In this document: piece after piece, positions 42,854-58,588 of the stretch
Layout of the letters: each line of letters opens with the position of its first letter
Numbering within the stretch: position 1 is the stretch's first letter
Origin: Chloroflexi bacterium ADurb.Bin180
Lineage (GTDB): Bacteria; Chloroflexota; Anaerolineae; UBA2200
Length of the DNA stretch: 64,000 bases
Direction: 5' to 3'
Assembly (NCBI GenBank): GCA_002070215.1
Contig: MWCV01000007.1
Span: 1,660 to 65,659 of the forward strand
The notes under the pieces: generated by a model
What the model saw: only the letters and a program-made list of their open reading frames with translations
Told to the model about the DNA's origin: nothing
Databases searched by the model: none
Translations under genes and position numbers: made by a program

Positions 42854-42897
42854 GCGAACGCGGTCACAAGGGCCAGCCAGGGACTGACCTGTACCCG

Positions 42898-44115: not shown

Positions 44116-44618
44116 TTACCGTAGGCGTTCTGACCATCAGCGACCGCTGCTCGCGCGGCGAGACGCAGGATCAGAGCGGGCCTCTGCTGCAGCAGATCGC
44201 GCGGGAGCGGCTGGTCGCCCAGGTGACGGTCACCGCGTGCGTGCCGGACGATCGGGAGCAGATTGCCTTCACGCTGCGCGATTGGTGCGACAATGCCAGG
44301 GCGGACCTCATCCTCACCACCGGCGGCACTGGCTTTTCGCCGCGTGACGTAACGCCGGAGGCAATGGCCGACGTAATTGAACGGGAGGCGCCAGGCCTGG
44401 CCGAGGCGATGCGGCGAGAAACAGCGCGGATCACGCCTCACGCCATGCTCTCGCGGGCTGTGGCCGGAATTCGCAGGAGCACGTTGATCGTCAACCTGCC
44501 TGGCAGCGCCAGGGCGGTGGCCGAGAACCTGGAGGCCATCCTGCCCGCCCTGCCACACGGCATCGAGATTCTGAAGGGTGGTCACGGTGCTAACGAGCAC
44601 CACGAATACAAGAAGTAA
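44112..44618 (+). CDS. mogA: Molybdopterin adenylyltransferase MogA/MoaB
   Basis: GTG at 44112 overlaps the moeA stop (GTGA). ITVGVLTISDRCSRGE and GGTGFSPRDVTPEA motifs. Confidence 0.85.
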   Translation: MITVGVLTISDRCSRGETQDQSGPLLQQIARERLVAQVTVTACVPDDREQIAFTLRDWCDNARADLILTTGGTGFSPRDVTPEAMADVIEREAPGLAEAMRRETARITPHAMLSRAVAGIRRSTLIVNLPGSARAVAENLEAILPALPHGIEILKGGHGANEHHEYKK

Positions 44619-44658: not shown

Positions 44659-45486
44659 GTGGGTCTGGTAAAGGACAAAACCGGCCGGCTGCACATCGAG
44701 ACGCAGTTGATGGCCGAATCGCTGATGGACAAGGCACTGCTCGAAAAGACAGAGACGGAGAATATCTTTCGCCCGCTGCCCGAACTGAACGTGATCAAGC
44801 TGGGCGGACAGAGCATCATCGACCGGGGCGCCCAGGTAGTGCTGCCGCTCATAGCAGAGATCGTCGCTGCCAGGGCCAAGCACCAGATGCTCATCGTGAC
44901 GGGCGGCGGAACTCGGAGCCGGCATGCCTATGCTATCGCGTTGGACCTGGGCATGTCCACCGGCATTCTGGCCAAACTGGGCCAGAGCATCAGCGAGCAG
45001 AACGCGCTGATGATCAGCACACTGCTCGCTCCGCACGGCGGGGTCAAGATCGGTCACGACGAAGTGGTGCAACTGCCGGCGTACCTGGCACTGGGCATCA
45101 TTCCGGTGATGCATGCCATGCCTCCCTACGGGCTGTGGGAAGAGCCGGCGGAGAAGGGCCGCATCCCGCCGCACCGCACCGATGCCGGGGCGTTTCTGAC
45201 GGCCGAGGTGCTCGGCGCCAGACGCTGCATCCTGGTCAAGGACGAAAAGGGCCTGTTCACGGCTGATCCCAAGAAGGATCCCCAAGCCAGGTTCATTCCT
45301 GAGATCGAAGTCAATGAGCTGCTGGCGATGGACCTGGCCGACCTGGCCGTTGAACGGACCATGCTTCAGGCACTGGCGAATGCCCGCACCGCCAAAGAGG
45401 TGCTGATCATCAACGGCCGCGAAAAGGGCAACCTGACCAAGGCGCTGCAGGGCAAGAATCCGGGGACGAGGATCTTCAAAGCGTAA
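44659..45486 (+). CDS. Molybdenum storage protein (MosA/MosB)-like amino-acid-kinase family protein
   Basis: LNVIKLGGQSIIDRGAQVVLPLIAEI, RIPPHRTDAGAFL and ARFIPEIE closely mirror motifs I recall from Azotobacter MosA/MosB. AAGGAGG RBS before GTG at 44659; directly follows mogA. Confidence 0.6.
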   Translation: MGLVKDKTGRLHIETQLMAESLMDKALLEKTETENIFRPLPELNVIKLGGQSIIDRGAQVVLPLIAEIVAARAKHQMLIVTGGGTRSRHAYAIALDLGMSTGILAKLGQSISEQNALMISTLLAPHGGVKIGHDEVVQLPAYLALGIIPVMHAMPPYGLWEEPAEKGRIPPHRTDAGAFLTAEVLGARRCILVKDEKGLFTADPKKDPQARFIPEIEVNELLAMDLADLAVERTMLQALANARTAKEVLIINGREKGNLTKALQGKNPGTRIFKA

Positions 45487-46318: not shown

Positions 46319-47014
46319 TTGTCAAGCGTGATCTACATTGGTATGGATGATACGGACAACGCTCAGTCGCGGGGCACGGGCCACATCGCGCGCGCCGTTG
46401 CCGGGATTCTGGCGGTGGACTTTGGCCTGGTGGGAGTGGTGCGGCATCAATTGCTCTTTGACCCGCGAATTCGCTATACGGCTCACAACAGCAGCAAGAG
46501 CGTCATTCTGGACGCAAACGGCAAGGTGGATCTGGCCGACCTGGCCAAACGCATCGGCCGGCTGATGTTGGACGATTTTCAGGAGGGCAGCGACCCGGGC
46601 GTGTGTGTTGCTCGCGACGTGCCGGAGGAGGTCGTGCAATATGGTCGCCGGGCGCAGCAGGAGCTGATCACTCAGGATGAGGCGCGGGCGCTGGCGGCCA
46701 AACACGACATCCCGTTGCTCGGGTTGGGCGGTGATGAAGGCGGAGTGATCGGCGCGCTGGCGGCAGTAGGGCTGGCCGCCAGTGGCAACGATGGGCGCTT
46801 TATGATGGTGGGGCGGCTGCGGGAGCTCAAGGGTCTGTTGCCCGTTCCAGCGGTGCTGGAAGCTGGCATTGCCGCGGTCGAGACGGCCGACGGCAGGCCG
46901 GTCACCGAGGGTTTGGTGGCCACGGACAAGATGCGCCCGGCGCGGCGGCGCGGGCTGCCCATTGCCATTGTCGAGTGGCAGGAGGATCACTGGCAGCCGC
47001 TAAAGCTGAACTAG
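46319..47014 (+). CDS. Hypothetical protein resembling the N-terminal kinase domain of tRNA(Ile2) agmatidine synthetase TiaS
   Basis: IYIGMDDTDNAQSRGTGHIA and GGVIGALAAVGLA resemble TiaS IGIDDTDS...G(L/V)IGALAA motifs. No OB fold or Zn ribbon. First gene of the ECF transporter operon. Confidence 0.35.
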   Translation: MSSVIYIGMDDTDNAQSRGTGHIARAVAGILAVDFGLVGVVRHQLLFDPRIRYTAHNSSKSVILDANGKVDLADLAKRIGRLMLDDFQEGSDPGVCVARDVPEEVVQYGRRAQQELITQDEARALAAKHDIPLLGLGGDEGGVIGALAAVGLAASGNDGRFMMVGRLRELKGLLPVPAVLEAGIAAVETADGRPVTEGLVATDKMRPARRRGLPIAIVEWQEDHWQPLKLN

Positions 47015-47024
47015 CTCTTCGTTC

Positions 47025-48488
47025 ATGGATAGGCAGGGTATGACCGGCAGTGGTGCTCTCGTAGCGGAGCAGGTTTCATATGGATACCTCGGCGCGGGCA
47101 AGGCGCTGGACGGAGTCTCGCTGGCCGTTGCGCCGGGAGAGGTCGTGTTGATTACGGGACCTTCTGGCTCCGGCAAGAGCACCCTGGCGCGATGCCTGAC
47201 TGGGCTCATCCCGCACCTCTACCACGGGGAGCTGCAGGGTGCCTGCCTGGTGGATGGGGTGTTAACGACGGACACGCCGCTGTGGCGTTTGGCCAAACGG
47301 GCGGGATTCGTCTTTCAGAATCCGGGCGAGCAGCTCCTGGCTACCTCGGTGGAAGAGGAAATCATCTTTGGCCTGGAGAACCTGGGGCTGCCGGCCGAAG
47401 AGATCGAGTCGCGTCTGGAAGAGGCTCTGGAGCGCTTTGGGCTGAAGGAGATGCGCCACCGCGCTCCGCAGACTCTGTCCGGCGGGGAGCAGCAGAAGCT
47501 GGCCCTGGCGGCGATTATGGCCCGCCATCCGGCAGCGCTGGTGCTCGACGAGCCGCTGTCGATGCTGGATACCACTGCGGCCAGCGCTCTGGTTGAGCAC
47601 TTGCTCGGTTTGGCCAGAGATGGGGTCACGGTGGTGCTGTGTGAGCACCGCGCCGAGTATCTGGAGGGCAGGCCCGACGTTCGGGTCGTGTCGATGGGCG
47701 CTGCGGCACCGCATCTGGCGCCGCCATCGTCCATCCCTTTGCCAGCCAGTGCTGAGGGTCAGGTGGTGCTCGAGGTTCAGGGGCTGGGCGTCACCCTGGG
47801 TGACAAACGCGTGCTGCAAGGCCTGAACCTGGGGCTTGCCGGCGGGCAGGTAGTGGTGATCGTGGGTCGCAACGGGGTGGGCAAGACCACCCTGCTGCGG
47901 GCCCTGTGCGGGCTGCAGAAACATGAAGGGACGGTGCTAGCCGACGGTGCCAGGCCGGAGCTGGGCCTGGTCTTTCAGAATGCCGACCTGCAGCTCTTCA
48001 ACGCATCGGTGCGGGACGAGATCCTGTACCGTATGCCGCAGCCAGACATGGCCCTGTACTCGTGGTTGCTGCAGGCTCTGGGCCTGGGCAGCTACGAGCA
48101 GGTGCCCCCGCTGCTGTTGAGCGAGGGCGAGAAGAAGCGGCTGGCCCTGGCGACGGTGATGATGCGCAATCCGAAACACGGCCTGCTGCTGGATGAGCCA
48201 GCCGTTGGACAGGACGCCGCGCACAAGCAGATGCTGATGAGCATCCTGCGCGCAGTGGCGCAGAGCGGCAAGGTCGTTCTGGTGACGACTCACGACCTGT
48301 CTCTGGCAGTGCAGGCGGACCGGCTGATCCTGCTGGGCGCAGATGGTTTTGTGGCCGATGGGCCGCCCCACCAGGTGCTGCAGAACGATGCGGCGTGGTC
48401 AGCGGTGGGGCTGGTGGTTCCGGATTGGGTGAGGAACCCGGAGCGCCGGGCCGAGGCAGAGGGCGCAACGGTCGGAGGGGGTGCTTGA
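47025..48488 (+). CDS. ecfA: ECF transporter fused double ATPase (EcfA1-EcfA2)
   Basis: Two ABC cassettes (GPSGSGKSTLARCL ... LSGGEQQKLALA; GRNGVGKTTLLRAL ... LSEGEKKRLALA) in 487 aa. Confidence 0.85.
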   Translation: MDRQGMTGSGALVAEQVSYGYLGAGKALDGVSLAVAPGEVVLITGPSGSGKSTLARCLTGLIPHLYHGELQGACLVDGVLTTDTPLWRLAKRAGFVFQNPGEQLLATSVEEEIIFGLENLGLPAEEIESRLEEALERFGLKEMRHRAPQTLSGGEQQKLALAAIMARHPAALVLDEPLSMLDTTAASALVEHLLGLARDGVTVVLCEHRAEYLEGRPDVRVVSMGAAAPHLAPPSSIPLPASAEGQVVLEVQGLGVTLGDKRVLQGLNLGLAGGQVVVIVGRNGVGKTTLLRALCGLQKHEGTVLADGARPELGLVFQNADLQLFNASVRDEILYRMPQPDMALYSWLLQALGLGSYEQVPPLLLSEGEKKRLALATVMMRNPKHGLLLDEPAVGQDAAHKQMLMSILRAVAQSGKVVLVTTHDLSLAVQADRLILLGADGFVADGPPHQVLQNDAAWSAVGLVVPDWVRNPERRAEAEGATVGGGA

Positions 48489-49249
48489 TTCGGCTGGGGC
48501 CCGCGCGCGGGGCTCGCGCCATCGTGCTGAGGGAGGATTCGCCGCTTCGACGGGTGGATCCGAGGGTCAAACTGGCACTGAGTCTGGGCGCATCGCTGGC
48601 GGTGATGCTGCCTCTGGAGCGGCTGATAGCCTTTATGGCGCTCTATGCGCTTTTCCTGTTGTGGGCGCGGCTAATGGATGAGGTCGCCAGGCAGGTCTGG
48701 CGGCTCAAGTGGATTCTGATTCTGCTCTTTCTGGTGGACTGGCTGATTATCTCGCTGGACCTGGCGGTGATCGTGACCCTGCGGCTGACGCTGCTGGCGG
48801 GAACGTTCACGGTGTTCTTTGCCACGACCAAACCGGAAGAACTGCGGCTCGCCCTGGAGTGGCTGAGGGTTCCGCACCGCTACGCTTTCAGCGTGAGCCT
48901 GGCTTTTCAGAGCGTGGGCTTGCTGGACGATCAGTGGCGGGCCATTCGTGAGGCGCAACAGTCACGCGGGGCCTGGTCGCCGCCGGAAGAAAAGCGCGGT
49001 CTGCGGTGGAACGACCTGCGAGCGCAGGTCAGCGCGGTGACCCTGGCGGTCAGGGATATGGTGGCTCTGAGCGTGCCGGCTATTGTGCTGGCAGTGAAGC
49101 ACGCCTGGGCGATGAACGAGGCGGCCTACGCCCGGGGATTTGATTCGCCCGAGCGCGTGCCCTACCACCGGCTCAAGATGACCGGGCTGGACTGGCTGCT
49201 GCTGACCGGAGCTCTCGCCACAGGGGTGATTCTGGTCTGGGTGAAGTAG
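48485..49249 (+). CDS. ecfT: ECF transporter transmembrane T component (CbiQ family)
   Basis: Polytopic CbiQ-like (VDPRVKLALSLGASLAVMLP...). TTG at 48485 overlaps the ecfA stop; the ORF frame opens at 48395. Confidence 0.7.
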   Translation: MIRLGPARGARAIVLREDSPLRRVDPRVKLALSLGASLAVMLPLERLIAFMALYALFLLWARLMDEVARQVWRLKWILILLFLVDWLIISLDLAVIVTLRLTLLAGTFTVFFATTKPEELRLALEWLRVPHRYAFSVSLAFQSVGLLDDQWRAIREAQQSRGAWSPPEEKRGLRWNDLRAQVSAVTLAVRDMVALSVPAIVLAVKHAWAMNEAAYARGFDSPERVPYHRLKMTGLDWLLLTGALATGVILVWVK

Positions 49250-49272: not shown

Positions 49273-49776
49273 GTGAAGCAAAAGACACGTATCAACATCG
49301 GACTGCTGGTCCTGGTGGTGCTTGTTGGCAGCGTGCTGGGCATCGAGGCCTGGCGCAGGGCCAGGGCGGAGCGCCAGACCGTAGGTGAGGTGGTTCTGAC
49401 GCCTGGCAGCGTGCCCATCTACCTGGACGGCCAGCTCATCGCCGGCTTTCAGCCGACGGACCTGGAGCAGCTCAGCAAGGTGAGCTTTGTCGATGCCGAA
49501 CAAGGCAAGACGCAGGAAGGGTGGCTGCTGCGCGACGTCCTCCTGCTCCACCTGCAGCGCAAGCGGCTCAAAGCAGACTCGCTCATCACGGTGAGCAGCT
49601 CAAGCCGAAACAAGTCAGCTCGAGTCACCTGGGCCCAGGCCGATGAGGCGGCCAACTGGGTCATGTTCGACCTGTCGGGGCGTGGAACACTCAAACTGGT
49701 GTCTGTTCTCGAAGGGCTCAAGACGCGCGACCAATGGGTCCAGGACGTGGACAGGATCGAGATCACGAGCAAATGA
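49273..49776 (+). CDS. Membrane-anchored protein with one cysteine-less sulfite-oxidase-like (Oxidored_molyb-like) domain
   Basis: N-terminal TM helix, then VVLTPGSVPIYLDGQ...EGWLLRDVLLLHL...NWVMFDLSGRGTLKLVSVLE...DVDRIEI. Stop overlaps start of the ECF S component (ATGA). Confidence 0.55.
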   Translation: MKQKTRINIGLLVLVVLVGSVLGIEAWRRARAERQTVGEVVLTPGSVPIYLDGQLIAGFQPTDLEQLSKVSFVDAEQGKTQEGWLLRDVLLLHLQRKRLKADSLITVSSSSRNKSARVTWAQADEAANWVMFDLSGRGTLKLVSVLEGLKTRDQWVQDVDRIEITSK

Positions 49777-50318
49777 AGCCACGTTACTTCTCGACCTTTC
49801 AACTGATTCTGCTGGCGCAGTTCGCCGCGCTGATTGTGGTAGCCAAGATCGCACTGCGGCTGCCGCTGCAGCTCCCCGGTCACTCGGGGCTCTTCTGGAT
49901 GGCCATTGTGATGGTCGGCGCCGGGGTGGTGCCCAAGCGCGGCGCGGCTACACTGATCGGGCTGACTTCGGCCATTCTGGCCGCCTTTCTCGGCCTGGGT
50001 GACTTTGGTGCCCTGGACACGTTTCTCTCCTACCTGGCGGTGGGCGTGGCGACGGATCTGGCCCTGTGGCTGATGGGCAGCCCGGAGAACCTGGCGGTGG
50101 CACCGCTGGCGGGAGCTACAGGGCATTTCGGCAAGTTCCTGGTCAAGTGGGCGCTGGCGGGTGTTCTGGGGGCGCCGATGGGGTTCGTTGCCCTAGGTCT
50201 GCTCAAGTCCATCGTCAGCTATCTGGTGTTCGGTGCGTTGGGCGGGTTCCTGGGGGCACTCACCCTGGCTGCTCTGAGGCGTGCCGGTTTCTTTGCCTAT
50301 CTGGCAGAACGAAAGTGA
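49773..50318 (+). CDS. ECF transporter substrate-specific S component (unknown substrate)
   Basis: ~181 aa with 5-6 TM helices. Translationally coupled to the upstream domain protein and downstream of ecfA/ecfT. Confidence 0.55.
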   Translation: MKPRYFSTFQLILLAQFAALIVVAKIALRLPLQLPGHSGLFWMAIVMVGAGVVPKRGAATLIGLTSAILAAFLGLGDFGALDTFLSYLAVGVATDLALWLMGSPENLAVAPLAGATGHFGKFLVKWALAGVLGAPMGFVALGLLKSIVSYLVFGALGGFLGALTLAALRRAGFFAYLAERK

Positions 50319-50323
50319 GGTAG

Positions 50324-51040
50324 GTGGCAGTGGAGATACTGAGAGGCTTTGCTCAGGCAGTGCAATTGATCCTGCACCGGGATCCCGCCTTGGCTACGAT
50401 TGTGGCGCTCTCATTGAGGGTTACGGGTATCGCTCTCCTGTTCAGCACTGTGCTCGGCATACCGCTGGGCATCTTCCTGGGCTTTAGTCGGTTTGTCGGT
50501 CGGCGGTTGGTCATCGCCATGCTTTACACTGGAATGGGCTTTCCTCCGGTGGTGGTCGGGCTGTTTGTATACATGCTCATCTCGCGCAGCGGCCCGATTG
50601 GCAAGTTGGCTCTACCCTTTGTACCCAGCCTATTCACGCCGGGGGCGATGATCATCGCACAGACGATCATCTCCTTCCCGCTGATCGCCGGCTTTACCAT
50701 GGCCGCCGTAATGGGGGTCGACCCGCAATTGCGCCAGCAGGTGATGGCTCTCGGTGCTACCCGCTGGCAGGGAGCGTGGACGGTGCTCACCGAGGCACGG
50801 GTCGGGGTGCTGGTGTCCATCGTGGCCGGCTTTGGCAGCGTGATCTCTGAGGTCGGTGCGGTGATGATGGTTGGCGGCAACATCGAGAACTATACGCGGG
50901 TGCTCACTACAGCTATCGTGCTGGAGACCAACAAAGGTCGTTTCACTCTGGCCATGGCGCTGGGGGTCATTCTGCTGGCCCTGTCGTTTATCGCCAACGT
51001 GATCATGCTGCGGCTGCAGGGAAGGACTCTGGACGAATGA
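50324..51040 (+). CDS. tupB: Tungstate/molybdate ABC transporter permease
   Basis: 238 aa ABC permease with 5-6 TM helices and an EAA-like loop; coupled to the tupC ATPase. Confidence 0.7.
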   Translation: MAVEILRGFAQAVQLILHRDPALATIVALSLRVTGIALLFSTVLGIPLGIFLGFSRFVGRRLVIAMLYTGMGFPPVVVGLFVYMLISRSGPIGKLALPFVPSLFTPGAMIIAQTIISFPLIAGFTMAAVMGVDPQLRQQVMALGATRWQGAWTVLTEARVGVLVSIVAGFGSVISEVGAVMMVGGNIENYTRVLTTAIVLETNKGRFTLAMALGVILLALSFIANVIMLRLQGRTLDE

Positions 51041-51768
51041 GCGAATCGATTTTTCGGCTCGAAGGAGTGTCCAAAGGCTACAACGGACGTTGCGTGGTCG
51101 ACGTTCCCGGGCTAGAGATCCACAGAGGAGAGATCTTTTGCGTTGTTGGCCCGAGCGGCGCCGGCAAGAGCACCCTGCTGCGGCTGCTGAACTTTCTCGA
51201 GCCGCCGAGTACGGGCACCATTCATTTTGACGGCGGCAGGTATGGCCCGGCGGACGAAGTGCCTCTGGCGCAGCGCCGCAAGGTAACCACTGTCTTTCAG
51301 CGCTCGATCCTGCTGAATCGCTCGGTCTGGGCCAACGTCGATTATGGCCTGTGGCTGCGCGGCGACAGGACGGGCGGTGAGGCGGTCGACGCGGCGCTGG
51401 AACAGGTAGGGCTCAAGGATCTGGCCCGCCAGCAAGCGCGCACGCTTTCCGGCGGCGAGCTGCAGCGCGTGGCCCTGGCCCGCGCCATTGTGATCAAGCC
51501 GGAGGTGCTGCTGCTCGATGAACCAACGGCCAACCTCGATCCGTACAACGTCGGCCTGATCGAGGAGATCGTGAGGGAGCTCAATCACACTCGCGGCACG
51601 ACGGTGGTTCTGGTGACCCATAATGTGTTTCAGGCCAAGCGCCTGGCCGACCGGGTCGCGTTGCTGTTGGAGTGCAAGCTCGTCGAGATCGCGGAGGTAC
51701 ATCAGTTCTTCGAGTCCCCCAGCGACCCGCGCACCGGGGCTTTTGTGCGCGGCGACCTGGTCTACTAA
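51037..51768 (+). CDS. tupC: Tungstate/molybdate ABC transporter ATP-binding protein
   Basis: GPSGAGKSTLLRLL Walker A, LSGGELQRVALARA signature, 243 aa. Confidence 0.8.
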   Translation: MSESIFRLEGVSKGYNGRCVVDVPGLEIHRGEIFCVVGPSGAGKSTLLRLLNFLEPPSTGTIHFDGGRYGPADEVPLAQRRKVTTVFQRSILLNRSVWANVDYGLWLRGDRTGGEAVDAALEQVGLKDLARQQARTLSGGELQRVALARAIVIKPEVLLLDEPTANLDPYNVGLIEEIVRELNHTRGTTVVLVTHNVFQAKRLADRVALLLECKLVEIAEVHQFFESPSDPRTGAFVRGDLVY

Positions 51769-52032
51769 CAAGTTGTCCAAATGGCCTGGCAGAGAGGGAC
51801 GCGCGGTGCAGGATGCAAGATACGGTCCTCGGACAATAGGTCTTGCCCACCTTTTGCCCGCATCCTGCCTCCTGTATCTTGCATCCTGCTTTGCCACAAA
51901 CGGTCGGCAGCGTCGCACCGCGACGCTGCCCGACTGACCTGAGCAAGAAGGAGGGAGTGAGACAGAAATCATTCGCCGTTCGGTTTGGGATGAGCTATGG
52001 CTCAGAGTCACTATCTTTTGGAGGAGAGAACC

Positions 52033-53370
52033 ATGAAGCGTACGTTGTCCAATCTGTTGTTGATCGTGGTGGTGCTGGGGATGCTGGTGTCCTGCAAGGC
52101 GCCGGCGCCAACTCCCACCGCAGTGCCACCGACCAAGGTGCCGCCGACGGCTACACCAGTTCCGCCGACCCCGGTACCGCCCACGCCCGTGCCGCCCACG
52201 GCTGTGCCGCCGACGCCGGCGCCGACCGCCATTCCCATGGCTGCCGGCCGCCTGCTGTTGGCCACGACCACCAGCACGCGCGATTCGGGTCTGCTCGACT
52301 TTATCCTGCCGGACTTTGAGAAGCAGTACAACGTCAAGGTCGACGTAGTGGCTGTGGGCAGCGGTCAGGCGATGAAGATCGGCCAGGACGGTAATGCCGA
52401 AGTCCTGCTGGTTCACTCGCGCGCCGCCGAAGACAAGTTCATGGCCGAAGGCCACGGCATCCGGCGCGAGGACGTGATGTACAACGACTTTGTACTGGTC
52501 GGCCCTGCCGCTGACCCGGCCGGCATCAAGGGCATGAAGAAGGCCGCCAAAGTCTTTGCCCAGATGGCCGAGAAGAAGGTCGAGTTTATCTCCCGCGCCG
52601 ACGAATCCGGCACGCATGTCAAGGAAAAGGACCTCTGGAAGGCCGCTGGAATCACCCCGGAGGGCTCCTGGTACGTTGCGGCTGGTGCAGGGATGGGCGC
52701 CGTACTCACCATGGCCAATGAAAAGCAGGCCTACACGCTGAGCGACCGCGCTACCTATCTGGCCCGCAAGGCAGAAGGGCTGCAACTGGAGATCCTGGTC
52801 GAGGGTGATCCAGTGATGTTCAACCCCTACGGGGTCATCCAGGTCGATCCGAAGAAGAACACGCAGATCAAGGGCGAGTTGGCCAAAGAGTTCATCGACT
52901 GGATCGTCTCCGTGCCGGTGCAGGAAAAGATCGCCACCTTCGGTGTCGACAAGTGGGGTGCGCCGCTCTTCTTCCCCGACTCGACCCTGTACAAGGCCGC
53001 TCACGCCCCGGCCCCGGCCGCGGGACTCAAGATTACCGGACTGGTCAACAAGCCGGTAACGCTGTCTGAGGCCGAGGTCAAGGCCATGCCGACGATGGAA
53101 GCCGAGCGCGCCAACAAGGAAGGCGTCATGGAAAAGTACACCGGCGTGTCCATCGTCAAGCTGCTCGAGCTCGCCGGCCACAAGGCCGAGGCAACGACCC
53201 TTGTCTTTGTTGCCGAGGATGGCTACACCGCCGATGTCGTCCTGGCCGATGTGCTCAAGTGCGAAAAGTGCATCCTGTCTTTCCGCAGCCAGGGTGGCTT
53301 TAGCTCGGTCCTGCCCGATTTCTCGGGCAAGGCGCAGGTCAAGGGCGTCGTGGAGATGCAGCTAAAGTAG
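52033..53370 (+). CDS. tupA: Tungstate-binding lipoprotein TupA fused to a C-terminal sulfite-oxidase-like domain
   Basis: Lipobox LVSC, PT-rich linker, TupA signature LATTTSTRDSGLLD, then a ~125-aa domain (GLKITGLVNKPVTLSEAEVKAMP...YTGVSIVKLLELAG...DGYTADVV). GGAGGAGAG RBS before ATG at 52033. Confidence 0.8.
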   Translation: MKRTLSNLLLIVVVLGMLVSCKAPAPTPTAVPPTKVPPTATPVPPTPVPPTPVPPTAVPPTPAPTAIPMAAGRLLLATTTSTRDSGLLDFILPDFEKQYNVKVDVVAVGSGQAMKIGQDGNAEVLLVHSRAAEDKFMAEGHGIRREDVMYNDFVLVGPAADPAGIKGMKKAAKVFAQMAEKKVEFISRADESGTHVKEKDLWKAAGITPEGSWYVAAGAGMGAVLTMANEKQAYTLSDRATYLARKAEGLQLEILVEGDPVMFNPYGVIQVDPKKNTQIKGELAKEFIDWIVSVPVQEKIATFGVDKWGAPLFFPDSTLYKAAHAPAPAAGLKITGLVNKPVTLSEAEVKAMPTMEAERANKEGVMEKYTGVSIVKLLELAGHKAEATTLVFVAEDGYTADVVLADVLKCEKCILSFRSQGGFSSVLPDFSGKAQVKGVVEMQLK

Positions 53371-53684
53371 CCGACCGCCCAGGTCAACTACTTCAGTCGG
53401 CTTCTTGCCGATGCGGCAGTTGCACCGTCCGGTACCCGGTCACGCCTGTACAGCGATGAGGGCCGGCGGTGCAGCTGCCAGCAGACGAAGAGCTCAGCAG
53501 GAAACCCCTGCCCGCGGATGGCTCCAGTCTGGCCCGACCTGGCTCTGTCAGCGGCGGCGTTACGCCGCTGCTGCGGGGCTTGGCCGGGTCGTGCGGAAAA
53601 CTGCTGGCGCCTCAGCGTGCAGGGCGTACCCGACTGACAGGTTCGACGCAAATCCCATTCCGCTCTGGAACGAGGAGAGAAACC

Positions 53685-54614
53685 GTGTGGAAACGTAGGT
53701 TCTCGAGGCTGTTCGCTCTCTTGGCAATCCTTCTGGTGCTTGTTGTCGTCGCCGGCATCGCTGCCGCCATGGCCGGGGCCAAGGCCCTGGCTCCGCTCAA
53801 GACCGCCACGGTCTATCCTTGGGCCATGCTGGCCTCCGAAGCCGACACCGTCAATCGTTGCCTGACGTGCCACAAGGCAGACGAGATGCATACGTGCCAG
53901 ACCTGCCACGACGCCCACGGGGGACTGGAGATGCCCAACATCCCCTTTGACGCCGTGGTGCAATTGGTAGGCGATTTCCCGCAGCCCGCTGTGGTGCAGC
54001 TCAATCAGATCTTTCCTTACGTCGAACGGCCGAACACAGCCATCGTACTGACCCAGTTCCTGCGCGACAAGGGAGTCGAGCAGTTCGAGAGCGTGACCCT
54101 TGCCGCGCCTGATGGAGCGGCGGTGACTCTGGAACCGGCCAACCTGACCGACGACGCCGTGCTCATACCCCACAAAGACGGAATGCGCTTCAGGGCAGAG
54201 AACCTGCACATCTCGACCTGGCTCAAGGGGATCACGCGCATTATTGTGGTGGGAACGCACAAGCCGCTGACCATTGACGGCACGGCCACATCTATCGGCC
54301 GGCTGCTTCTCGGGCCGACCTCCAGCGTCACGGTTGAGCCGAGCGACGTAATGCTCAAGAGCCCGGAAGACGGCGAAATACGCCAGGGTCGGACCTTCTC
54401 GCGCGTTGAGGGGGCGGCGGTCGAACCGCTGCTCGCCAACAGCGCCTTTTCGCGGCTGTTGGTCCGCGACGGGTCTGGGCGTCAGTACGAGCTTTCCAGA
54501 GAAGACGCCCGCGGCGCGCTGCTCACCCAGATGTGGGGCAAGACAGTCCTGGTACTGCCGGAGCGAGGACGCGCCAGGTGGGTGGCGGACGTGATTGACC
54601 TTGTCAGCCAGTAG
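53685..54614 (+). CDS. Membrane-anchored diheme c-type cytochrome fused to two sulfite-oxidase-like domains
   Basis: GTG at 53685 with GGAGAG upstream; TM helix; CLTCH and CQTCH heme-binding motifs; then two domains (VVQLVGDFPQPAVV...STWLKGITRIIVVG; LTIDGTATSIGRLL...RARWVADVIDLV). Confidence 0.6.
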   Translation: MWKRRFSRLFALLAILLVLVVVAGIAAAMAGAKALAPLKTATVYPWAMLASEADTVNRCLTCHKADEMHTCQTCHDAHGGLEMPNIPFDAVVQLVGDFPQPAVVQLNQIFPYVERPNTAIVLTQFLRDKGVEQFESVTLAAPDGAAVTLEPANLTDDAVLIPHKDGMRFRAENLHISTWLKGITRIIVVGTHKPLTIDGTATSIGRLLLGPTSSVTVEPSDVMLKSPEDGEIRQGRTFSRVEGAAVEPLLANSAFSRLLVRDGSGRQYELSREDARGALLTQMWGKTVLVLPERGRARWVADVIDLVSQ

Positions 54615-54644
54615 GCGACATTCGACATCAGAGATGGAGGTTGA

Positions 54645-55130
54645 ATGATGCGCAGGAACGTTGTCATTGCTTTGCTGCTCGTTGCGGTGGTGTTGTGCAG
54701 TTGCGCTCCCAAGGGCAGCGCTGCCCCGACTGTGGACTGGAAGCTGGACATCAAGGGCGATGTGGGCAAGCCCGTCTCCCTGACCTATGCCGACCTGGCC
54801 AAGATGCCACAAATTACACTCAAAGACGTGATGATGCAAAAGGCTGCCGGTGAGCCCGAGCCGACGACCTGGACCGGTGTCGCTCTCTCCGAGATCCTGA
54901 AACAGGCAGAGGGTGATGCCAACCCATCGTCGATTACGGCCGTAGCCGCCGATGGCTATGCCGTGGCCATACCCCGCGACGAGCTGGAGGGAGCCATCGT
55001 TGCGCTGAAGGACGGCAAGGACTGGATTGTCAAATCAGATCCCGATAAGGGGCCGATTCGCCTGGTCTGCCCCAAGGCGCCAGCCAATCGCTGGCTGTTT
55101 TCGCTGACCGAGATCAAAGTCAAGAAGTAG
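54645..55130 (+). CDS. Lipoprotein with single cysteine-less sulfite-oxidase-like (Oxidored_molyb-like) domain
   Basis: Lipobox LCSCA, then WKLDIKGDVGKPVSLTYADLAKMP...TWTGVALSEILKQAEG...AADGYAVAI...GPIRLVCPKAPANRWLFSLTEIKV. No Mo-ligand Cys loop; GGAGG RBS. Confidence 0.6.
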   Translation: MMRRNVVIALLLVAVVLCSCAPKGSAAPTVDWKLDIKGDVGKPVSLTYADLAKMPQITLKDVMMQKAAGEPEPTTWTGVALSEILKQAEGDANPSSITAVAADGYAVAIPRDELEGAIVALKDGKDWIVKSDPDKGPIRLVCPKAPANRWLFSLTEIKVKK

Positions 55131-55160
55131 ATTATGCTTTCTGTGCCGGAGGGTGTGCTT

Positions 55161-56591
55161 ATGAGCAAGTTGCGGACTCTGATGCTGGCCGTACTGGTGC
55201 TGTGTCTGGCGGTTGGCTGTGGTCAGCCTGGCGACCATGGCGGTCAGACCAAACCGACTGCTGCACCTACGTCACCGGTGGTGCTGGAACTGGTGGGCCC
55301 GACCGGAACGAAAACACTGACCATGGACGAGCTGAAGGCGCTACCGGTGGAGGAGGGCTGGTCAGGTTACAAGAACAGCGTGGGGAGGATCACCCTTCCC
55401 GAGCGCTACAAGGGCGTATCAATGGAGTACCTGTGCAGCCTGGTTGGCGGCCTTACGCCAGAACGAGCGGTCGAGATGGTGGGTGCCGACGGCTACTTTA
55501 TGACCCTGTCGTACAAAGAGGCGATGGAAGGCAAGCTGGTGACCTACGACCCGGGCACAGGCAAGGAGATCCAGTTCAACGAGCCGCTCAAGACCATCAT
55601 CGCCTTCGAAAGGGAAGGCCAGCCGCTCCCCGCCGCCAGCGACGGAGCCCTGCGCTTTGCCGCCATCAGTGCCAGAAATAACCAGCTCATCGATGGCCAC
55701 TGGACCGTCAAGTGGCTGGCCAAGCTGGTGCTGAAGGAGGCCACGCGCGATTGGACGTTGCACCTGGAAGGCCAGATAGTCGAGGAGATGTCCAAGTCGA
55801 CATTCGAGTCCGGCGCCACTCCCTGCTGCCATCGCCGTATCTGGACCGATGAACAGGGTGGCATCTGGGCGGGCATACCGCTCTGGCACCTGATCGGGCG
55901 CATAGACGACGACATCACCCATCAGGCCGGCGGCTTTAACGACGGCATTGCCAAACTCGGCTACACCGTCGAGCTCGTCGCGGCTGACGGCTACTCCGTT
56001 ACCTTTGATAGCTCGCGAGTCAGGTACAACAACAACCTGATTGTGGTGAACACGCTGGACGAAAAGCCACTGGAAGACAAGTACTTCCCGCTGCGTCTCG
56101 TTGGCTCGGATGTGCAGAAGAAAGACGCCATTGCTCAGATTACCAGCATCATCCTGCATTTGCCCAAGGGAGTTCCGCTGCCCACGGCAGTGATCCCCGC
56201 ACCGGGAGCGCCGATGCCAACTCTGCCGCCCAGCAGTTCGGCCCCGACGCTGGTGATTCGGGGCAACGTGGAGAAAGAGCTGACCTTCTCGATGGCCGAG
56301 CTCAAGGCCATGGCTATCGACCTCGAGACTGAGCATCCCATCGAGGGCATGGGCAAGTACAGCGGCGCGCGAATCCACGAGCTGCTGCAGAAAGCCGGCG
56401 CCAAGCCAGGTATCAAGTTCGCGGTGCTGGTCTCTGGCGACGGCGCACGAACGTCGATGCCCTTTGGACTGTTGGATGGCTGTGCCGACTGCCTGGCCGG
56501 GTTCAGCTACGACGGCCGGCTCCTGTCCGTGATGCCGACGATGGACTGTTACTTCTGGATCAAAGACCTGGTGGCTATCGAACTCGACTAG
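55161..56591 (+). CDS. Lipoprotein with three tandem sulfite-oxidase-like domains
   Basis: Lipobox AVGCG. Domain 1 ends DGHWTVKWLAKLVLKE, domain 2 ends KYFPLRLVGSDVQKKDAIAQITSIIL, domain 3 begins PTLVIRGNVEKELTFSMAELKAMA and ends CYFWIKDLVAIELD. Confidence 0.6.
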   Translation: MSKLRTLMLAVLVLCLAVGCGQPGDHGGQTKPTAAPTSPVVLELVGPTGTKTLTMDELKALPVEEGWSGYKNSVGRITLPERYKGVSMEYLCSLVGGLTPERAVEMVGADGYFMTLSYKEAMEGKLVTYDPGTGKEIQFNEPLKTIIAFEREGQPLPAASDGALRFAAISARNNQLIDGHWTVKWLAKLVLKEATRDWTLHLEGQIVEEMSKSTFESGATPCCHRRIWTDEQGGIWAGIPLWHLIGRIDDDITHQAGGFNDGIAKLGYTVELVAADGYSVTFDSSRVRYNNNLIVVNTLDEKPLEDKYFPLRLVGSDVQKKDAIAQITSIILHLPKGVPLPTAVIPAPGAPMPTLPPSSSAPTLVIRGNVEKELTFSMAELKAMAIDLETEHPIEGMGKYSGARIHELLQKAGAKPGIKFAVLVSGDGARTSMPFGLLDGCADCLAGFSYDGRLLSVMPTMDCYFWIKDLVAIELD

Positions 56592-56655: not shown

Positions 56656-57747
56656 GTGAGACGTCGGCTGCTTGTGGTTTGCCTGTGCTTTCTGCTGGTG
56701 TTGCCGGCCGGGTGCGCCCCAAAGAAGAGAACCGCGGTGCCCGTCTTTTTCGCGGGGAGTCTCATTATCCCTTTCCAGGAACTCGAGGCGGCTTACGAGG
56801 CGCAACATCCGGAGGTGGACCTGCTGCTGGAGGGCCATGGCAGCATCCAGGTTATCCGCCACGTGACCGAGATACACGAGCTCATCGATGTGGTGGTGAC
56901 GGCCGACCACGCGCTCATCCCGATGCTGATGTACTCGGCGCAGGTGCCGGAAACCAGGGCGCCCTATGCCGACTGGTACATCGAATTCGCCACGAACAAG
57001 CTCTCGCTGGCCTATCGATCCGACAGCCGCTACGCTAACGAGATCACCGCAGACAACTGGTACGAGGTCATCTCGCGCCCCGACGTCAGACTGGGTCTGG
57101 CCGACCCGCGCTTTGATGCCTGCGGCTACCGCGCGCTGATGGTGGTGCAGATGGCCGAAAAGCTCTACGGCCAGCCCACATTGTTCGAAGACCTGATCAC
57201 CGGCAGCTTCCGCACCGGGATCACCACGCGCCTGGAGAACGGACGCCTGGTCATTCACGTGCCAGAGATCCTCGAGGTCAAGGACAAGTCGCCTCTGGTG
57301 CTCCGCGCCTACAGCATTCAACTGATAGCGCTGCTCGAATCGGGCGACCTGGACTATGCTTTCGAGTATGAGAGCGTCATCAAGCAGCACCAGCTCCAGT
57401 CGGTGGCGCTTCCCGACGAACTGAACCTGGGTGCTGAGGCGCTGGCCGATCACTATGGCCAGGTAGAAGTGCGTATGGACTATCAGCGCTTCGCTTCGGT
57501 GCAGCCGGTGTTTCGCGGCGAGCCCATCGCCTACGGGGTGACCATTCCCACCAATGCTCCTCATCCCGCAGAAGCGGCGAGGTTCGTGGCCTTTTTGCTG
57601 GGGCCAGAGGGACAAAAGATCCTGCTGAACAACCATCAGCCCCTGATCATCCCCGGACGAGCCAGCAACTATGAGCGTGTGCCTGCGGCACTGCAGTCAC
57701 TGTGCGTGCCGGCGCCCGAGCTATCGGGCACCGGCCTGTTAAGGTGA
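56656..57747 (+). CDS. wtpA: Molybdate/tungstate-binding lipoprotein of the WtpA/ModA family
   Basis: Lipobox LPAGCA, VFFAGSLIIPFQELEAAYEAQHP start, and 363 aa length fit WtpA better than ModA. Confidence 0.6.
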   Translation: MRRRLLVVCLCFLLVLPAGCAPKKRTAVPVFFAGSLIIPFQELEAAYEAQHPEVDLLLEGHGSIQVIRHVTEIHELIDVVVTADHALIPMLMYSAQVPETRAPYADWYIEFATNKLSLAYRSDSRYANEITADNWYEVISRPDVRLGLADPRFDACGYRALMVVQMAEKLYGQPTLFEDLITGSFRTGITTRLENGRLVIHVPEILEVKDKSPLVLRAYSIQLIALLESGDLDYAFEYESVIKQHQLQSVALPDELNLGAEALADHYGQVEVRMDYQRFASVQPVFRGEPIAYGVTIPTNAPHPAEAARFVAFLLGPEGQKILLNNHQPLIIPGRASNYERVPAALQSLCVPAPELSGTGLLR

Positions 57748-57751
57748 TGCG

Positions 57752-58588
57752 GTGAGCAGCCCCAGGGCGGCGCCTTCCGGTACGGGGCGATTTCGCCGAC
57801 CCGACGGGCTGGCCAAAGCATTTGCCCTGTTGAGCGCGCTGCTGTTACTCTTTGTGCTGCTGCCGCTGCTGGACACTCTGCTGGGAACCAGCTTCAGGGC
57901 GCTGCTGGCCACGCTGACTGATTCGCAGGTTATGAACGCACTGGCACTGACCTTTCTTGCCGCTGCCGTGGCCACTTTGCTCACCCTTCTGACTGGAGTT
58001 CCTCTGGCCTACCTTCTGGCGCGCTATGACTTTGGCGGCAAGAGGTGGGTAGAGGGGGTGGTGAACCTGCCGGTGGTGGTTCCCCATACGGCTGCCGGCA
58101 TCGCCCTGCTGATGGTCTTTGGCCGGCAGGGGGTGCTGGGCAAGCCGCTGGGAACGGTGGGGCTCAGCTTTACCGATACCTTTGCCGGGGTAGTGGTGGG
58201 GATGCTCTTTGTGAGCCTGCCGTTCCTGGTGAACGCGGCCAGAGAGTCCTTCGAGATGGTGGATCCCGAGCTGGAGAGAATGGCCGAGACGCAGGGTGCC
58301 ACGAGCTGGCAGGCTTTCTGGTTGGTGGCCTTGCCTCTGGCCCTGCGGGGCATCCTGGCGGGGGCGCTCTTGATGTGGGGCCGGGCCATCAGCGAGTTCG
58401 GCGCGGTGGTGATCCTGGCGTATCACCCCAAGACCGTGCCGGTGCTCGTTTTTGAGCGCTTTGAAGGTTTCGGTCTGGCGGCGGCTCAGCCGGTGGCGGT
58501 GCTGCTCATCATCGCTTCGCTGGCGGTGTTCGTACTCCTCCAGACGCTGGTCGTCCCCCCTCGCGACGGACGGCACTCGAACCTCTAG
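57752..58588 (+). CDS. wtpB: Molybdate/tungstate ABC transporter permease (WtpB/ModB family)
   Basis: CysT/ModB-like permease (MVDPELERMAETQGATSWQAFWLVALP EAA loop). No cognate ATPase follows. Confidence 0.7.
   Translation: MSSPRAAPSGTGRFRRPDGLAKAFALLSALLLLFVLLPLLDTLLGTSFRALLATLTDSQVMNALALTFLAAAVATLLTLLTGVPLAYLLARYDFGGKRWVEGVVNLPVVVPHTAAGIALLMVFGRQGVLGKPLGTVGLSFTDTFAGVVVGMLFVSLPFLVNAARESFEMVDPELERMAETQGATSWQAFWLVALPLALRGILAGALLMWGRAISEFGAVVILAYHPKTVPVLVFERFEGFGLAAAQPVAVLLIIASLAVFVLLQTLVVPPRDGRHSNL

Follow-up and report, generated by a model that had tools for sequence, protein, structure and literature searches.

What are eight copies of a shortened molybdoenzyme-like domain doing in five exported proteins, interleaved with genes for molybdenum and tungsten import? 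The question arises from a 64,000-nt stretch of the Chloroflexi bacterium ADurb.Bin180 genome (hereafter, the window), where an earlier note had located these proteins; all five open reading frames (ORFs) are present on the plus strand at its coordinates (Table 1). The note's reading of their surroundings is borne out by profile and PDB matches: moaA was recognized by the Pfam Radical_SAM and Mob_synth_C domains, moeA by MoeA_N/C, and mogA/moaB by MoCF_biosynth, while moaC, moaD, and moaE were identified by eye from their ORF translations, with no family search behind them. The window further encodes a MosB homolog, 48% identical to a copy adjoining wtpA in a methanogen locus (L094), and a TiaS-TCKD/methanogenesis-marker-11-like protein, whose gene lies directly upstream of the ECF system in the relatives that have it (L010, L011, and L013). 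These are accompanied by ECF A-A', T, and S components and by the Tup and Wtp genes; no wtpC was found after wtpA and wtpB in the window. The ECF T component probably begins downstream of its ORF start, and the ATG of the S component overlaps the p1 stop codon (ATGA). A Moco riboswitch, scoring 110 bits with a covariance model built in this analysis, precedes moaA and not the repeat genes; no second one was found at 45400-57000.

Table 1. Features of the window, with the matches that identify them; subfeatures follow the protein that contains them.
Feature	Coordinates	Strand	Evidence and remarks
Moco/Tuco riboswitch aptamer (RF01055), upstream of moaA	40464..40584	+	Rfam 63.3 bits (gathering score 36)
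moaA, moaC, moaD, moaE, moeA, mogA/moaB	40660..44618	+	Complete molybdopterin pathway; context
MosB-like molybdenum-storage protein	44659..45486	+	Amino-acid-kinase fold; PDB 2ogx_B E 7.9e-71
TiaS-TCKD/methanogenesis-marker-11-like	46319..47014	+	PF22641 27.5 bits; TIGR03280 E 2.7e-11
Fused ECF ATPase (A-A')	47025..48488	+	TIGR04520 289.5 bits; two ABC_tran domains
ECF T component (CbiQ family)	48395..49249	+	PF02361 55.8 bits
p1	49273..49776	+	TM-anchored; single divergent SUOX-fold domain, no DGY
ECF S component, YkoE/PF09819 type	49773..50318	+	PF09819 24.6 bits (slightly under the 25.2 cut-off)
tupB and tupC	50324..51768	+	TupB NF041773 E 8.8e-46; TupC, generic ABC ATPase match
TupA fusion lipoprotein	51997..53370	+	NF041772 E 1.4e-64; PF12849 167 bits; PF00174 31.5 bits
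TupA C-terminal SUOX-fold domain	53011-53367		B-type; motif CEKC
p3	53685..54614	+	TM anchor; two haem-c motifs; two shortened SUOX-fold domains
p3 CxxCH motifs	53859-53873, 53895-53909		Haem c
p3-d1, p3-d2	53919-54263, 54252-54611		SUOX-fold domains
p4	54645..55130	+	Single-domain lipoprotein with lipobox; A-type (MxKSxGE, DGY, GPIRLVCP, NRW); PF00174 49.5 bits; PDB 7kom (PruR) E 1.9e-4; profile vs SorA E 7e-6
p5	55161..56591	+	Three-domain lipoprotein with lipobox; PF00174 34.7 bits (whole protein)
p5-d1	55266-55751		WtpA-partner type
p5-d2	55734-56171		Cys-His type, repeated within giant surface proteins
p5-d3	56232-56588		B-type; motif CADC; PF00174 21.6 bits alone
wtpA and wtpB	56656..58588	+	TIGR03730 313.5 bits (cut-off 242.75); NF040839 291 bits

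Both HMM and structure searches placed the repeats in the sulfite oxidase (SUOX) fold and not in a generic adhesin fold, in agreement with the original assignment to a shortened SUOX/YedY Moco fold that has lost its Mo-ligand loop in most copies. Using hhalign against p4, we recovered p5-d1 at 98.5%, p5-d2 at 97.9%, p5-d3 at 99.1%, and the B-type at 98.2%. Against the p4 family and each other, the three p5 domains scored 95.5-99.1%, with p5-d3 matching the B-type at 100% and p1 matching the p5-d3 family at 93.3% (E 2.6e-7). Individually weakest are the two p3 copies, p3-d2 scoring 79% in one run and 68% in another against p4, with 67% against p5-d3, and p3-d1 at 62% against p5-d3; each is a moderately supported candidate. 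The hhalign network joins all copies; sequence divergence among the domain types is very high. From the PF00174 and hhalign matches together, the proposed count of 1+1+2+1+3, or eight copies, therefore holds, and these appear to be shortened, Moco-free SUOX-fold domains of the kind found in PruR. The in-frame fusion to TupA is also supported: NF041772 and PF00174 both match within one ORF. Judging from their sequences, all five proteins are exported or lipid-anchored, through TM helices in p1 (model helix 3-35) and p3, and through lipoboxes in p4, p5, and the TupA fusion (LVSC, followed by a Pro/Thr linker). These signals are of Sec or lipoprotein type, and the p4-family alignment has no conserved twin-arginine motif.

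The description of the repeats as cysteine-less needs qualification. In a narrower sense it applies to p4, in which only ~16 residues match SorA residues 92-123, a span that we take to include the Mo-ligand Cys104; aligned to PruR, p4 shows a conserved Lys at the Cys-equivalent position. A shortened Mo-ligand loop is likewise seen in most copies. It fails for the B-type copies, with an invariant CxxC in the TupA C-terminus and p5-d3 types (41/41 and 38/39), for the p5-d2 type, in which 227 of 288 family domains keep a Cys-His in the counterpart of the Mo-ligand loop, and for the p4 family, which has a near-invariant Cys inside GPIRLVCP. Invariant features of the p4 family are DGY, corresponding to N/D102-x-Y104 of PruR, and a C-terminal Trp; the B-type and p1 copies are without the Trp or the DGY motif. 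Both CxxCH motifs are invariant across the p3 family; the p5 family comprises 974 representatives. Since the Cys loop is shortened, Lys occupies the Cys-equivalent position, and no Tat motif is conserved, the domains are probably non-catalytic.

The earlier statement that no such system had been described overlooked PruR, a characterized exported, Cys-less, truncated SUOX-fold protein that binds pterins in the SUOX-fold cleft (PMC11194511; PDB 7kos, 7kom) and whose site is said not to accommodate Moco (PMC13259868). This Agrobacterium tumefaciens Atu1130-type periplasmic protein (PDB 7kos/7kou, 7kom, 7kp2, and 7rkb) is, judging from sequence comparison, the closest solved relative and best small solved match of the window domains. 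Both are small, exported, apparently non-catalytic SUOX folds whose Moco site is truncated and lacks the Mo-ligating Cys, and the DGY Tyr aligns with the pterin-stacking Tyr104; the PruR family itself includes a D-x-Y variant of N102-x-Y104. However, PruR is a single-copy proteobacterial signaling protein paired with the DcpA diguanylate cyclase/phosphodiesterase, whereas the domains here occur in eight copies, are fused to TupA and a dihaem cytochrome (and in relatives to an ECF S component), and lie in Mo/W uptake operons that, in relatives, place the repeats under Moco riboswitches; the Cys-equivalent position is Trp in PruR and Lys (or Cys-His) here. With SUOX-family molybdoenzymes (PF00174: YedY/MsrP, SorA, SoxC, and chicken sulfite oxidase) the domains share the motifs L.I.G.V, W.GV.L..LL, and P.RLV.P...W.K and a haem partner (cf. 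SorAB and MsrPQ). In contrast to those enzymes, they measure 100-160 aa rather than about 200-250 aa, are multi-copy, have a shortened Mo-ligand loop and no dimerization domain, and are exported by Sec or as lipoproteins instead of by Tat.

The TupA, which carries the TTTS motif, and WtpA of the window are typical, and in the literature accessible to search we found neither an extracytoplasmic helper protein nor an additional C-terminal domain described for TupA, WtpA, or ModA. Like Group I ECF importers with a YkoE-type S component (5edl), the ECF system has its own A-A', T, and S genes and a YkoE-homologous S, but it differs in its Moco riboswitch control (in relatives) and in an S component fused (relatives) or translationally coupled (window) to extracytoplasmic SUOX-fold domains. 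ECF systems are, to our knowledge, normally defined by the absence of an extracytoplasmic binding protein. What appears to be new is the system, namely the fusions, WtpA adjacency, ECF cassette, and riboswitches; the domain type was already known.

Homologs of the repeats are associated with Mo/W transport in three lineages, spanning bacteria and archaea. All eight TupA homologs near Chloroflexota cassettes carry one or two C-terminal B-type domains, and in 53 of 54 metagenomic loci WtpA is encoded downstream of a p5-d1-type single-domain protein, in the same orientation and -3 to 72 nt away. The same order recurs in two archaeal loci, represented by protein clusters of Methanosphaerula subterraneus (L094, which shares the MosB-like gene with the window) and 'Euryarchaeota archaeon ADurb.BinA087' (L095), as well as in a Syntrophomonadaceae bacterium (L096) and in L177. 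Giant p5-like proteins adjoin an ABC transporter (Wtp/Mod) or an ECF transporter (PF09819) in 5/5 contexts. Fusion of the domain to a YkoE-type ECF S component (YkoE 5edl, E 5e-9) occurs in at least 48 Chloroflexota loci, as part of a cassette that also contains a phosphodiesterase and the dihaem p3. This cassette is directly preceded by RF01055 in 34/48 loci, and in two more the riboswitch is reached through tupB or an over-extended ORF (about 36/48 in all); it also precedes tupB in L007 and L013 and giant SUOX-repeat genes in L096 and L177 (as a tandem in the latter). The proposed association with W/Mo uptake is thus upheld, although Tup and Wtp are not the usual partners of the p4 type: across Chloroflexota its commonest partner is the YkoE-type cassette with the dihaem protein and phosphodiesterase. 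Of 33 Chloroflexota loci with full flanks, only 4 have TupA, and 1 has WtpA, within 10 kb, and the Mo/W link of the p4 type therefore rests mainly on the riboswitch. Phosphoesterases recur, as an NPP-like lipoprotein in 31/33 Chloroflexota cassettes and as Metallophos proteins in L096 and L178.

Weighing these observations, we lean toward the view that the eight repeats form an extracytoplasmic layer for reception and hand-off in a Mo/W acquisition apparatus, with a ligand that may be a free oxyanion or a cofactor-type metal-pterin. The domains would be displayed on the external face of the cell membrane of a presumably monoderm Anaerolineae bacterium and tied to its importers by one copy covalently joined to the tungstate-binding TupA, by the three-domain p5 directly before wtpA, and by p1, translationally coupled to the S component of the YkoE-type importer. 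A Mo/W-bearing anionic species would bind in the cleft occupied by Moco in true SUOX enzymes, where a conserved Lys(-Ser) loop would replace the Mo-ligating Cys loop and most types would retain the PruR pterin-sandwich Tyr (DGY) and Trp. The bound species might then be conditioned by redox via the two c-type haems of p3 and, in relatives, also by phosphoester hydrolysis, before the metal or ligand is handed to TupA, WtpA, or the S component and imported. Against this reading, TupA and WtpA function without partners in characterized organisms, which leaves the need for a helper unexplained.

Two more specific versions of the receptor and hand-off reading differ in their ligand. A tentative one is that the domains salvage cofactor, binding Moco/Wco or molybdopterin-type pterins that other cells release to the outside; phosphoesterases would trim phosphate or dinucleotide, the dihaem protein would drive oxidative metal release to TupA/WtpA, and the YkoE-type ECF would take up either the intact cofactor or its pterin part. 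Moco is very labile when free, we know of no bacterial Moco uptake system, the organism has the full de novo pathway from moaA through mogA, and the B-type and p1 copies are without Trp or DGY. This version draws on the pterins held by PruR in the same cleft (PMC11194511), the invariant DGY and Trp of the p4 family, the phosphoesterases in three settings, the homology of the S component to YkoE, a binder of heterocyclic vitamin precursors, and the Moco riboswitches. The other, likewise possible though doubtful, is pure capture of oxyanions, as in the earlier note's proposal, or of thiometalates; the former Mo site, now with a lining of Lys, Ser, Arg, and, depending on the type, Cys, would concentrate WO4/MoO4 or thio-forms for TupA/WtpA. 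It agrees with the TupA fusions and WtpA adjacency, with the conserved K-S, KSSTG, Arg, CxxC, and Cys-His motifs, and with the named carriers, Anaerolineae, methanogen-related archaea, and Syntrophomonadaceae, all groups known as anaerobes. It leaves the recurrent phosphoesterases and the vitamin-type S component unexplained; known oxyanion-binding proteins already have very high affinity, and we know of no precedent for Moco-free oxyanion binding by a SUOX fold. Of that proposal the uptake link stands; the kept pterin-stacking residues and the recurring phosphoesterases point to a pterin or cofactor-type ligand at least as much as to a free oxyanion.

Other readings dispense with acquisition. 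A generic extracellular scaffold or adhesion module without a small ligand, the transporter neighborhood reflecting membrane tethering of binding proteins, seems unlikely: each type conserves its own cleft residues (DGY, NRW, K-S loop, CxxC), and the association is specific to Mo/W systems and Moco riboswitches rather than to transporters generally. What speaks for it, besides the divergence among domain types, are tandem arrays of 3-7 copies in 1000-3100-aa proteins, with PKD, CBM6/35/96, NosD, SLH, and PEGA as neighbors or domains; the p5-d2 relatives found in huge PKD/CBM surface proteins are also compatible with such a module. More improbable still is a true extracytoplasmic Mo/W redox complex, with the ECF system working outward to load cofactor onto Sec-exported domains, the p5-d2 Cys-His type as active site, and p3 as electron partner, as in SorAB or MsrPQ. 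Seven of the eight copies are without the Cys, we know of no post-export Moco insertion, and the tight TupA/WtpA link fits acquisition better. The domains are also truncated as in PruR, whose site reportedly cannot fit Moco (PMC13259868), to be set against the p3 dihaem fusion, the Cys-His near the canonical Cys position, and a Listeria ECF system that reportedly traffics FAD outward for extracytosolic flavinylation (PMC9973259). That system (RibU/FmnA-FmnB) likewise ties an ECF system to cofactor handling for extracytosolic redox proteins, but its cofactor is FAD, it is not known to involve SUOX-fold domains, and it bears only on post-export loading. We give least credence to PruR-like signaling, in which the domains would act as sensors of extracellular pterins that control a membrane partner: PruR is the closest solved homolog, but no DcpA-type GGDEF/EAL or TorS/BaeS-type partner occurs among the annotated genes of the window and the related loci read, the partners are transporters, and eight copies per locus are unlike sensor architecture.

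Because their relatives adjoin or are fused to Mo/W importers behind Moco riboswitches, these repeats appear to be an outer layer of Mo/W acquisition that had not been described before.

The five exported proteins singled out in the earlier note proved to be real ORFs, each with a transmembrane (TM) anchor or lipobox, and their closest database copies come from Anaerolineae MAGs. Its count of eight copies of one domain (one in p1, one at the C-terminus of TupA, two in p3, one in p4 and three in p5, termed d1 to d3) was upheld as well, the two p3 copies being individually the least secure. The copies are about 100-160 residues long and match the Moco-binding fold of the sulfite-oxidase/YedY (SUOX) family: in a profile HMM check against PF00174, the gathering score was passed by p4 (49.5 bits), the TupA C-terminus (31.5 bits) and whole p5 (34.7 bits). 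Pfam searches with the p5-d1 and p5-d2 segments alone gave no match, though whole p5 passes, and this was settled by profile-profile comparison, in which the p4 family profile was linked to p5-d1 (98.5%), p5-d2 (97.9%), p5-d3 (99.1%) and the TupA C-terminus (98.2%). We distinguish an A type (p4), a B type (the TupA C-terminus and p5-d3), a d1 type that partners WtpA and a d2 type with a Cys-His pair. Relatives of p4 number 786 at E <= 0.001, those among the matches listed being named 'molybdopterin-dependent oxidoreductase / YedY-like', and the p5 family comprises 974 representatives at 50% clustering.

The conserved Mo-ligating Cys of SUOX enzymes is absent from p4, in which the loop is shortened. 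The p4 family profile aligns with SorA residues 70-91 and 124-222, while SorA 92-123, the poorly matched segment in which the Mo-ligand Cys104 presumably lies, has only about 16 counterparts. A near-invariant p4 Lys (in MxKSxGE) aligns with the position of Vibrio vulnificus PruR equivalent to the Mo-ligand Cys, and a corresponding conserved Lys is found in B-type (NKxGE, 41/41) and d1-type (GxKSSTG) domains and in p1 (GK). The description of the repeats as cysteine-less thus holds for the Mo-ligand loop and its Cys in most copies but is wrong in detail: B-type domains carry an invariant CxxC, p4 has a near-invariant Cys within GPIRLVCP, and the d2 type keeps a Cys-His in the Mo-ligand-equivalent loop (227 of 288 family domains), p5-d2 being the only copy here to do so. 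Judged from motif spacing and profile alignment, the p5-d2 Cys is probably homologous to the canonical Mo ligand. SUOX enzymes are Tat-exported or cytoplasmic, which lets the cofactor enter the protein ahead of export; the repeat proteins bear lipoboxes or TM anchors instead. The MMRRN stretch of p4 was considered as a Tat signal and discarded, since its RR pair is not maintained across the family.

At the level of the domain, this kind of protein is already on record. The secreted protein PruR, known from Agrobacterium and other Proteobacteria, has a small SUOX fold that lacks the Cys and whose site is truncated; it binds pterins between Tyr104 and Trp160 together with Asn102, and controls the DcpA cyclase/phosphodiesterase (PMC11194511, PMC13259868). 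The repeats share its small exported fold, its truncated site and its lack of a Mo-ligand Cys, and p4 has a D-G-Y at the N/D102-x-Y104 position and an invariant Trp (NRW) near the C-terminus. All p4-type and B-type domains have the D-G-Y, which is also common in d1 and d2 and absent from p1 and p3. Unlike PruR, which carries Trp where SUOX enzymes have the Mo-ligand Cys (PMC11194511), the repeats have Lys at that position, and the B type lacks the C-terminal Trp. The claim that no such system had been described was therefore too strong for the domain, since the PruR kind is known, but the papers within reach of the searches included none on the system.

The Mo/W gene context reported for the window was borne out, and it also includes a riboswitch before moaA on which the earlier note was silent (see table). 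Nearly all genes from 40464 to 58588 lie on the + strand. The TupA-type protein with adjacent permease and ATPase constitutes a TupABC system, and the ECF genes form a group I transporter, with A-A', T and its own S component encoded in a single operon (TIGR04520, 289 bits; PF02361, 55.8 bits); the fused homologue of the borderline S component matches YkoE at E 5e-9. Downstream of wtpB, no wtpC was found in the window, the next gene being on the opposite strand, and the related locus L010 likewise has wtpA-wtpB without a trailing wtpC. Since tupC is the only type-I ABC ATPase gene at the locus, it could serve both permeases, or wtpC may be located elsewhere. In the window the riboswitch stands before moaA and not before the repeat genes, no second riboswitch was found in 45400-57000, and the divergent DUF134 regulator is a candidate for control of the second gene array.

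Features of the locus in the window and of related loci
Feature	Position	Strand	Match or remark
UbiD-family decarboxylase, aconitase X (AcnX), isopentenyl phosphate kinase genes	33336-37390	+	adjacent; kinase archaeal-type, 161 bits (cut-off 120)
Moco/Tuco riboswitch RF01055	40464-40584	+	Rfam, 63 bits; immediately 5' of moaA
moaA, moaC, moaD, moaE, moeA, mogA		+	3' of riboswitch
MosB molybdenum-storage homologue			after mogA; E 8e-71
Divergent DUF134 regulator			between MosB homologue and TiaS-TCKD-like gene
101-aa ORF	45949-46254	-	adjoins DUF134 regulator; without family match
TiaS-TCKD-like gene	46319-47014	+	before ECF genes
ECF fused A-A', then T			5' of p1
p1	49273-49776		after T
ECF S component			PF09819, 24.6 bits (borderline); ATG overlaps p1 stop codon
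tupB			NF041773, E 8.8e-46
tupC			between tupB and tupA
tupA fusion	51997-53370		NF041772, E 1.4e-64, 218 bits (under equivalog cut-off of 400); PF12849, 167 bits; TTTS motif
p3	53685-54614		after tupA
p4	54645-55130		after p3
p5	55161-56591		after p4
Palindrome	56608-56635		in 64-nt p5-wtpA gap
wtpA			313.5 bits (above curated cut-off of 242.75)
wtpB			291 bits (cut-off 340)
wtpA-wtpB without trailing wtpC	57752-58700		
RuBisCO-like protein	59422-60729	-	MtnW-type, 379 bits (under cut-off of 409)
NPP-like lipoprotein phosphodiesterase, L013	10922-12064		N-terminal extension of about 130 aa
~280-aa exported family, L094	15250-16137		
~280-aa exported family, L095	64-1727		
~280-aa exported family, L096	15124-15996		
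c-di-GMP-II and Moco riboswitches, L096	3837-4107		in tandem, 5' of operon

Several further features of the window were recorded. The 101-aa ORF beside the regulator has a counterpart in L010, a conserved 83-aa gene, and may belong to a divergent regulatory unit between the moa and ECF/tup arrays. The product of the TiaS-TCKD-like gene is cytoplasmic and shows similarity both to the kinase (TCKD) domain of TiaS and to the C-terminal portion of methanogenesis marker protein 11; where a homologue is present (L010, L011, L013), it lies directly 5' of the p1-containing ECF system, beside a MosB-like gene. The gap between p5 and wtpA holds a perfect 12-bp GC-rich palindrome, CGGAGGGCGGCC GGCC GGCCGCCCTCCA, the cause of a weak, spurious 'SorX' Rfam match; it may act as a hairpin for mRNA processing or stability, or as an attenuator separating the two genes. 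Upstream, the UbiD, AcnX and isopentenyl phosphate kinase genes form an 'archaeal-type' modified mevalonate pathway gene set, here in a Chloroflexota genome. The RuBisCO-like protein has its best match in the MtnW-type 2,3-diketo-5-methylthiopentyl-1-phosphate enolase; in L007 and L010 it is encoded in synteny with the locus, with an FGGY kinase and an SCP2 protein as neighbours.

Among the close relatives, L010, L011 and L014 have a gene order identical to that of the window, and L007 is rearranged with all parts kept and a GntR-PBP_like regulator added. More broadly, a survey of the p4 type covering 80 GTDB species (79 labelled Chloroflexota-type MAGs and one short contig labelled Ignavibacteriaceae) places it in a six-gene cassette: a YkoE-type S component fused to SUOX-fold domain(s), A-A', T, p3, an NPP-like lipoprotein phosphodiesterase and a 281-aa p4+B protein. 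Cassette parts occur in 31-33 of the 33 loci with full flanks, and these same loci hold TupA in only 4 cases, WtpA in 1 and moa/moe in 0. The apparent refutation of the Mo/W link by these counts was overturned by the riboswitch scan and the p5-type contexts. L009, which encodes a 281-aa homologue and had stood as a counter-example without Mo/W neighbours, was also rejected; a Phosphodiest fragment upstream identifies it as the 3' end of an ECF cassette at a contig edge.

RF01055 lies directly 5' of the first cassette gene in four loci (L012, L015, L019 and L086) and 5' of tupB in L007 and L013. A covariance model built from the RF01055 sites of these loci recovered 44 riboswitch copies across 41 loci, each on the same strand as the cassette; a copy sits beside the S-fusion gene in 34 of the 48 cassettes with upstream sequence, plus two explained cases, and tandem copies precede a p4-like gene in three loci. 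All eight TupA homologues in these loci carry one or two C-terminal B-type domains. The proposed co-occurrence with Mo/W transport genes stands for the TupA fusions and for adjacency to WtpA (below); around the p4 cassettes, where TupA and WtpA are scarce, it is chiefly the riboswitch that ties the domain to Mo/W.

In the p5 family, the d2 type forms 3-7 repeats in surface proteins of 1000-3100 aa with PKD, CBM and NosD domains, from methanogen-related archaea (Methanoregulaceae, Methanosphaerula) and Syntrophomonadaceae; all five of the giant-protein contexts examined adjoin Mo/W-type or PF09819-ECF transporters. The archaeal loci L094 and L095, the Syntrophomonadaceae locus L096 and a further locus, L177, share an operon in which the gene for a ~280-aa GDGxTHYYHQGP protein is followed by a ~190-aa TM-anchored d1-type gene, wtpA, wtpB and wtpC/TOBE. 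As additional neighbours, L094 has a MosB-like gene (48% identity to that of the window), L095 has FdhD, Mop, ModABC and a formate dehydrogenase, and L096 has a purple-acid-phosphatase-like gene. The L178 arrangement runs from a 1556-aa repeat protein through Metallophos and a PF09819 S component to A-A' and T. A diverse d1 alignment had no conserved stretch, and the metagenome scan used three closer sequences; the resulting sample of 80 loci is biased towards a single archaeal-like lineage, with at least 61% identity to the archaeal query. Within this lineage-biased sample, 53 of the 54 loci with room have wtpA after the d1-type gene on the same strand, the two being -3 to 72 nt apart, and the gene for the 280-aa protein stands before the d1-type gene in 51 of 52; the window order of p5 then wtpA agrees with the d1-WtpA rule. 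Moco riboswitches precede the giant-protein gene in L096 and, in tandem, in L177; a search of the archaeal-type loci found none.

The ~280-aa family is exported, with an invariant GDGxTHYYHQGP and a C-terminal TM anchor, and has weak partial similarity (15-30 bits) to the SUOX-fold d1 type. In L096, from a Syntrophomonadaceae MAG, the tandem c-di-GMP-II and Moco riboswitches are followed by an operon for a PKD/SLH protein, a 2318-aa surface protein of SUOX repeats, the purple-acid-phosphatase-like protein and WtpABC.

Two kinds of partner recur. The dihaem protein p3, whose exported segment has the two CxxCH motifs of a c-type cytochrome (C59/C62/H63 and C71/C74/H75, invariant in 34 homologues) with haem attachment predicted, is a constant one in Chloroflexota; phosphoesterases frequently accompany the domains in several lineages. 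The N-terminal extension of the L013 phosphodiesterase, with the pattern GVPLERVLWTAG..., suggests a further degenerate SUOX-fold copy.

The repeat domains are extracytoplasmic, have the Moco fold and mostly lack the Mo ligand. Either by physical fusion or within shared operons, they are joined to the components of TupABC, WtpABC and YkoE-type ECF transporters that receive the substrate, and their bacterial operons sit behind Moco riboswitches. On balance, we consider it somewhat more likely than not that, at the level of the system, they serve Mo/W acquisition as an accessory layer of receptors. A Mo/W-bearing anionic ligand would be bound in the former Moco cleft and it, or its metal, handed to the importer, with an intervening redox step and, in relatives, possibly a step of phosphoester hydrolysis. 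The simplest such ligand would be a free oxyanion or thiometalate, which fits the presence of Tup and Wtp but accounts for neither the phosphoesterases nor the vitamin-type S component. A metal-pterin of the cofactor type would explain more, namely the fold ancestry, the PruR precedent, the kept Tyr/Trp, the phosphoesterases, the ECF transporter and the riboswitch; it is without precedent, and the organism synthesises its own molybdopterin. A more specific and rather doubtful proposal is that a hitherto unrecognised surface machinery of these strict anaerobes (Anaerolineae, Methanomicrobiales-type archaea and Syntrophomonadaceae) harvests an environmental Mo/W cofactor or metal-pterin. The degenerate Moco-binding domains would then be capture receptors, the surface phosphoesterases and the dihaem protein would dismantle the captured species, the released metal would pass to TupA or WtpA, and uptake of the pterin or cofactor would fall to the YkoE-type ECF transporter under Moco-riboswitch control.

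The remaining explanations are minority readings. The domains may form a real surface Mo/W enzyme, loaded after export, for which the Cys-His of the d2 type speaks and the loss of the ligand in most other copies does not, or they may be a scaffold without a ligand. For PruR-like signalling there is the likeness of the fold itself, but no DcpA-type partner (GGDEF/EAL or TorS/BaeS) occurs among the annotated genes of the window locus and the related loci tabulated, and we found no mention of a transporter context in the PruR literature examined.

There is a substantial chance that the receptor layer and its transporters represent a new kind of uptake system. Literature searches, with most subscription journals outside their scope, returned no TupA-SUOX fusion, no SUOX-fold WtpA partner, no ECF S component with SUOX-fold domains, no Moco-riboswitch-controlled ECF transporter and no surface protein made of SUOX-fold arrays, and nothing relevant on Moco salvage beyond PruR. 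Prokaryotic W/Mo uptake, as described to date, comprises three self-sufficient ABC systems, Mod, Wtp and Tup. Our data point to a conserved, riboswitch-regulated accessory layer, derived from a molybdoenzyme fold without its cofactor ligand and linked to a fourth, ECF-type transporter, in groups important in anaerobic digestion and syntrophy that are reportedly dependent on W/Mo enzymes. The locus supplies directly testable proteins, among them p4 as a 135-aa soluble domain. If the receptor role is true, it would enlarge Mo/W homeostasis by a new component, supply a first function for hundreds of proteins mis-annotated as 'molybdopterin-dependent oxidoreductase / YedY-like', and carry the PruR paradigm, in which the Moco fold serves as a receptor for a ligand, beyond signalling into nutrient acquisition. 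Were the harvesting of cofactor to prove true as well, this would be the first ECF system of the Moco/pterin class and also the first ECF importer to possess extracytoplasmic binding domains of its own.
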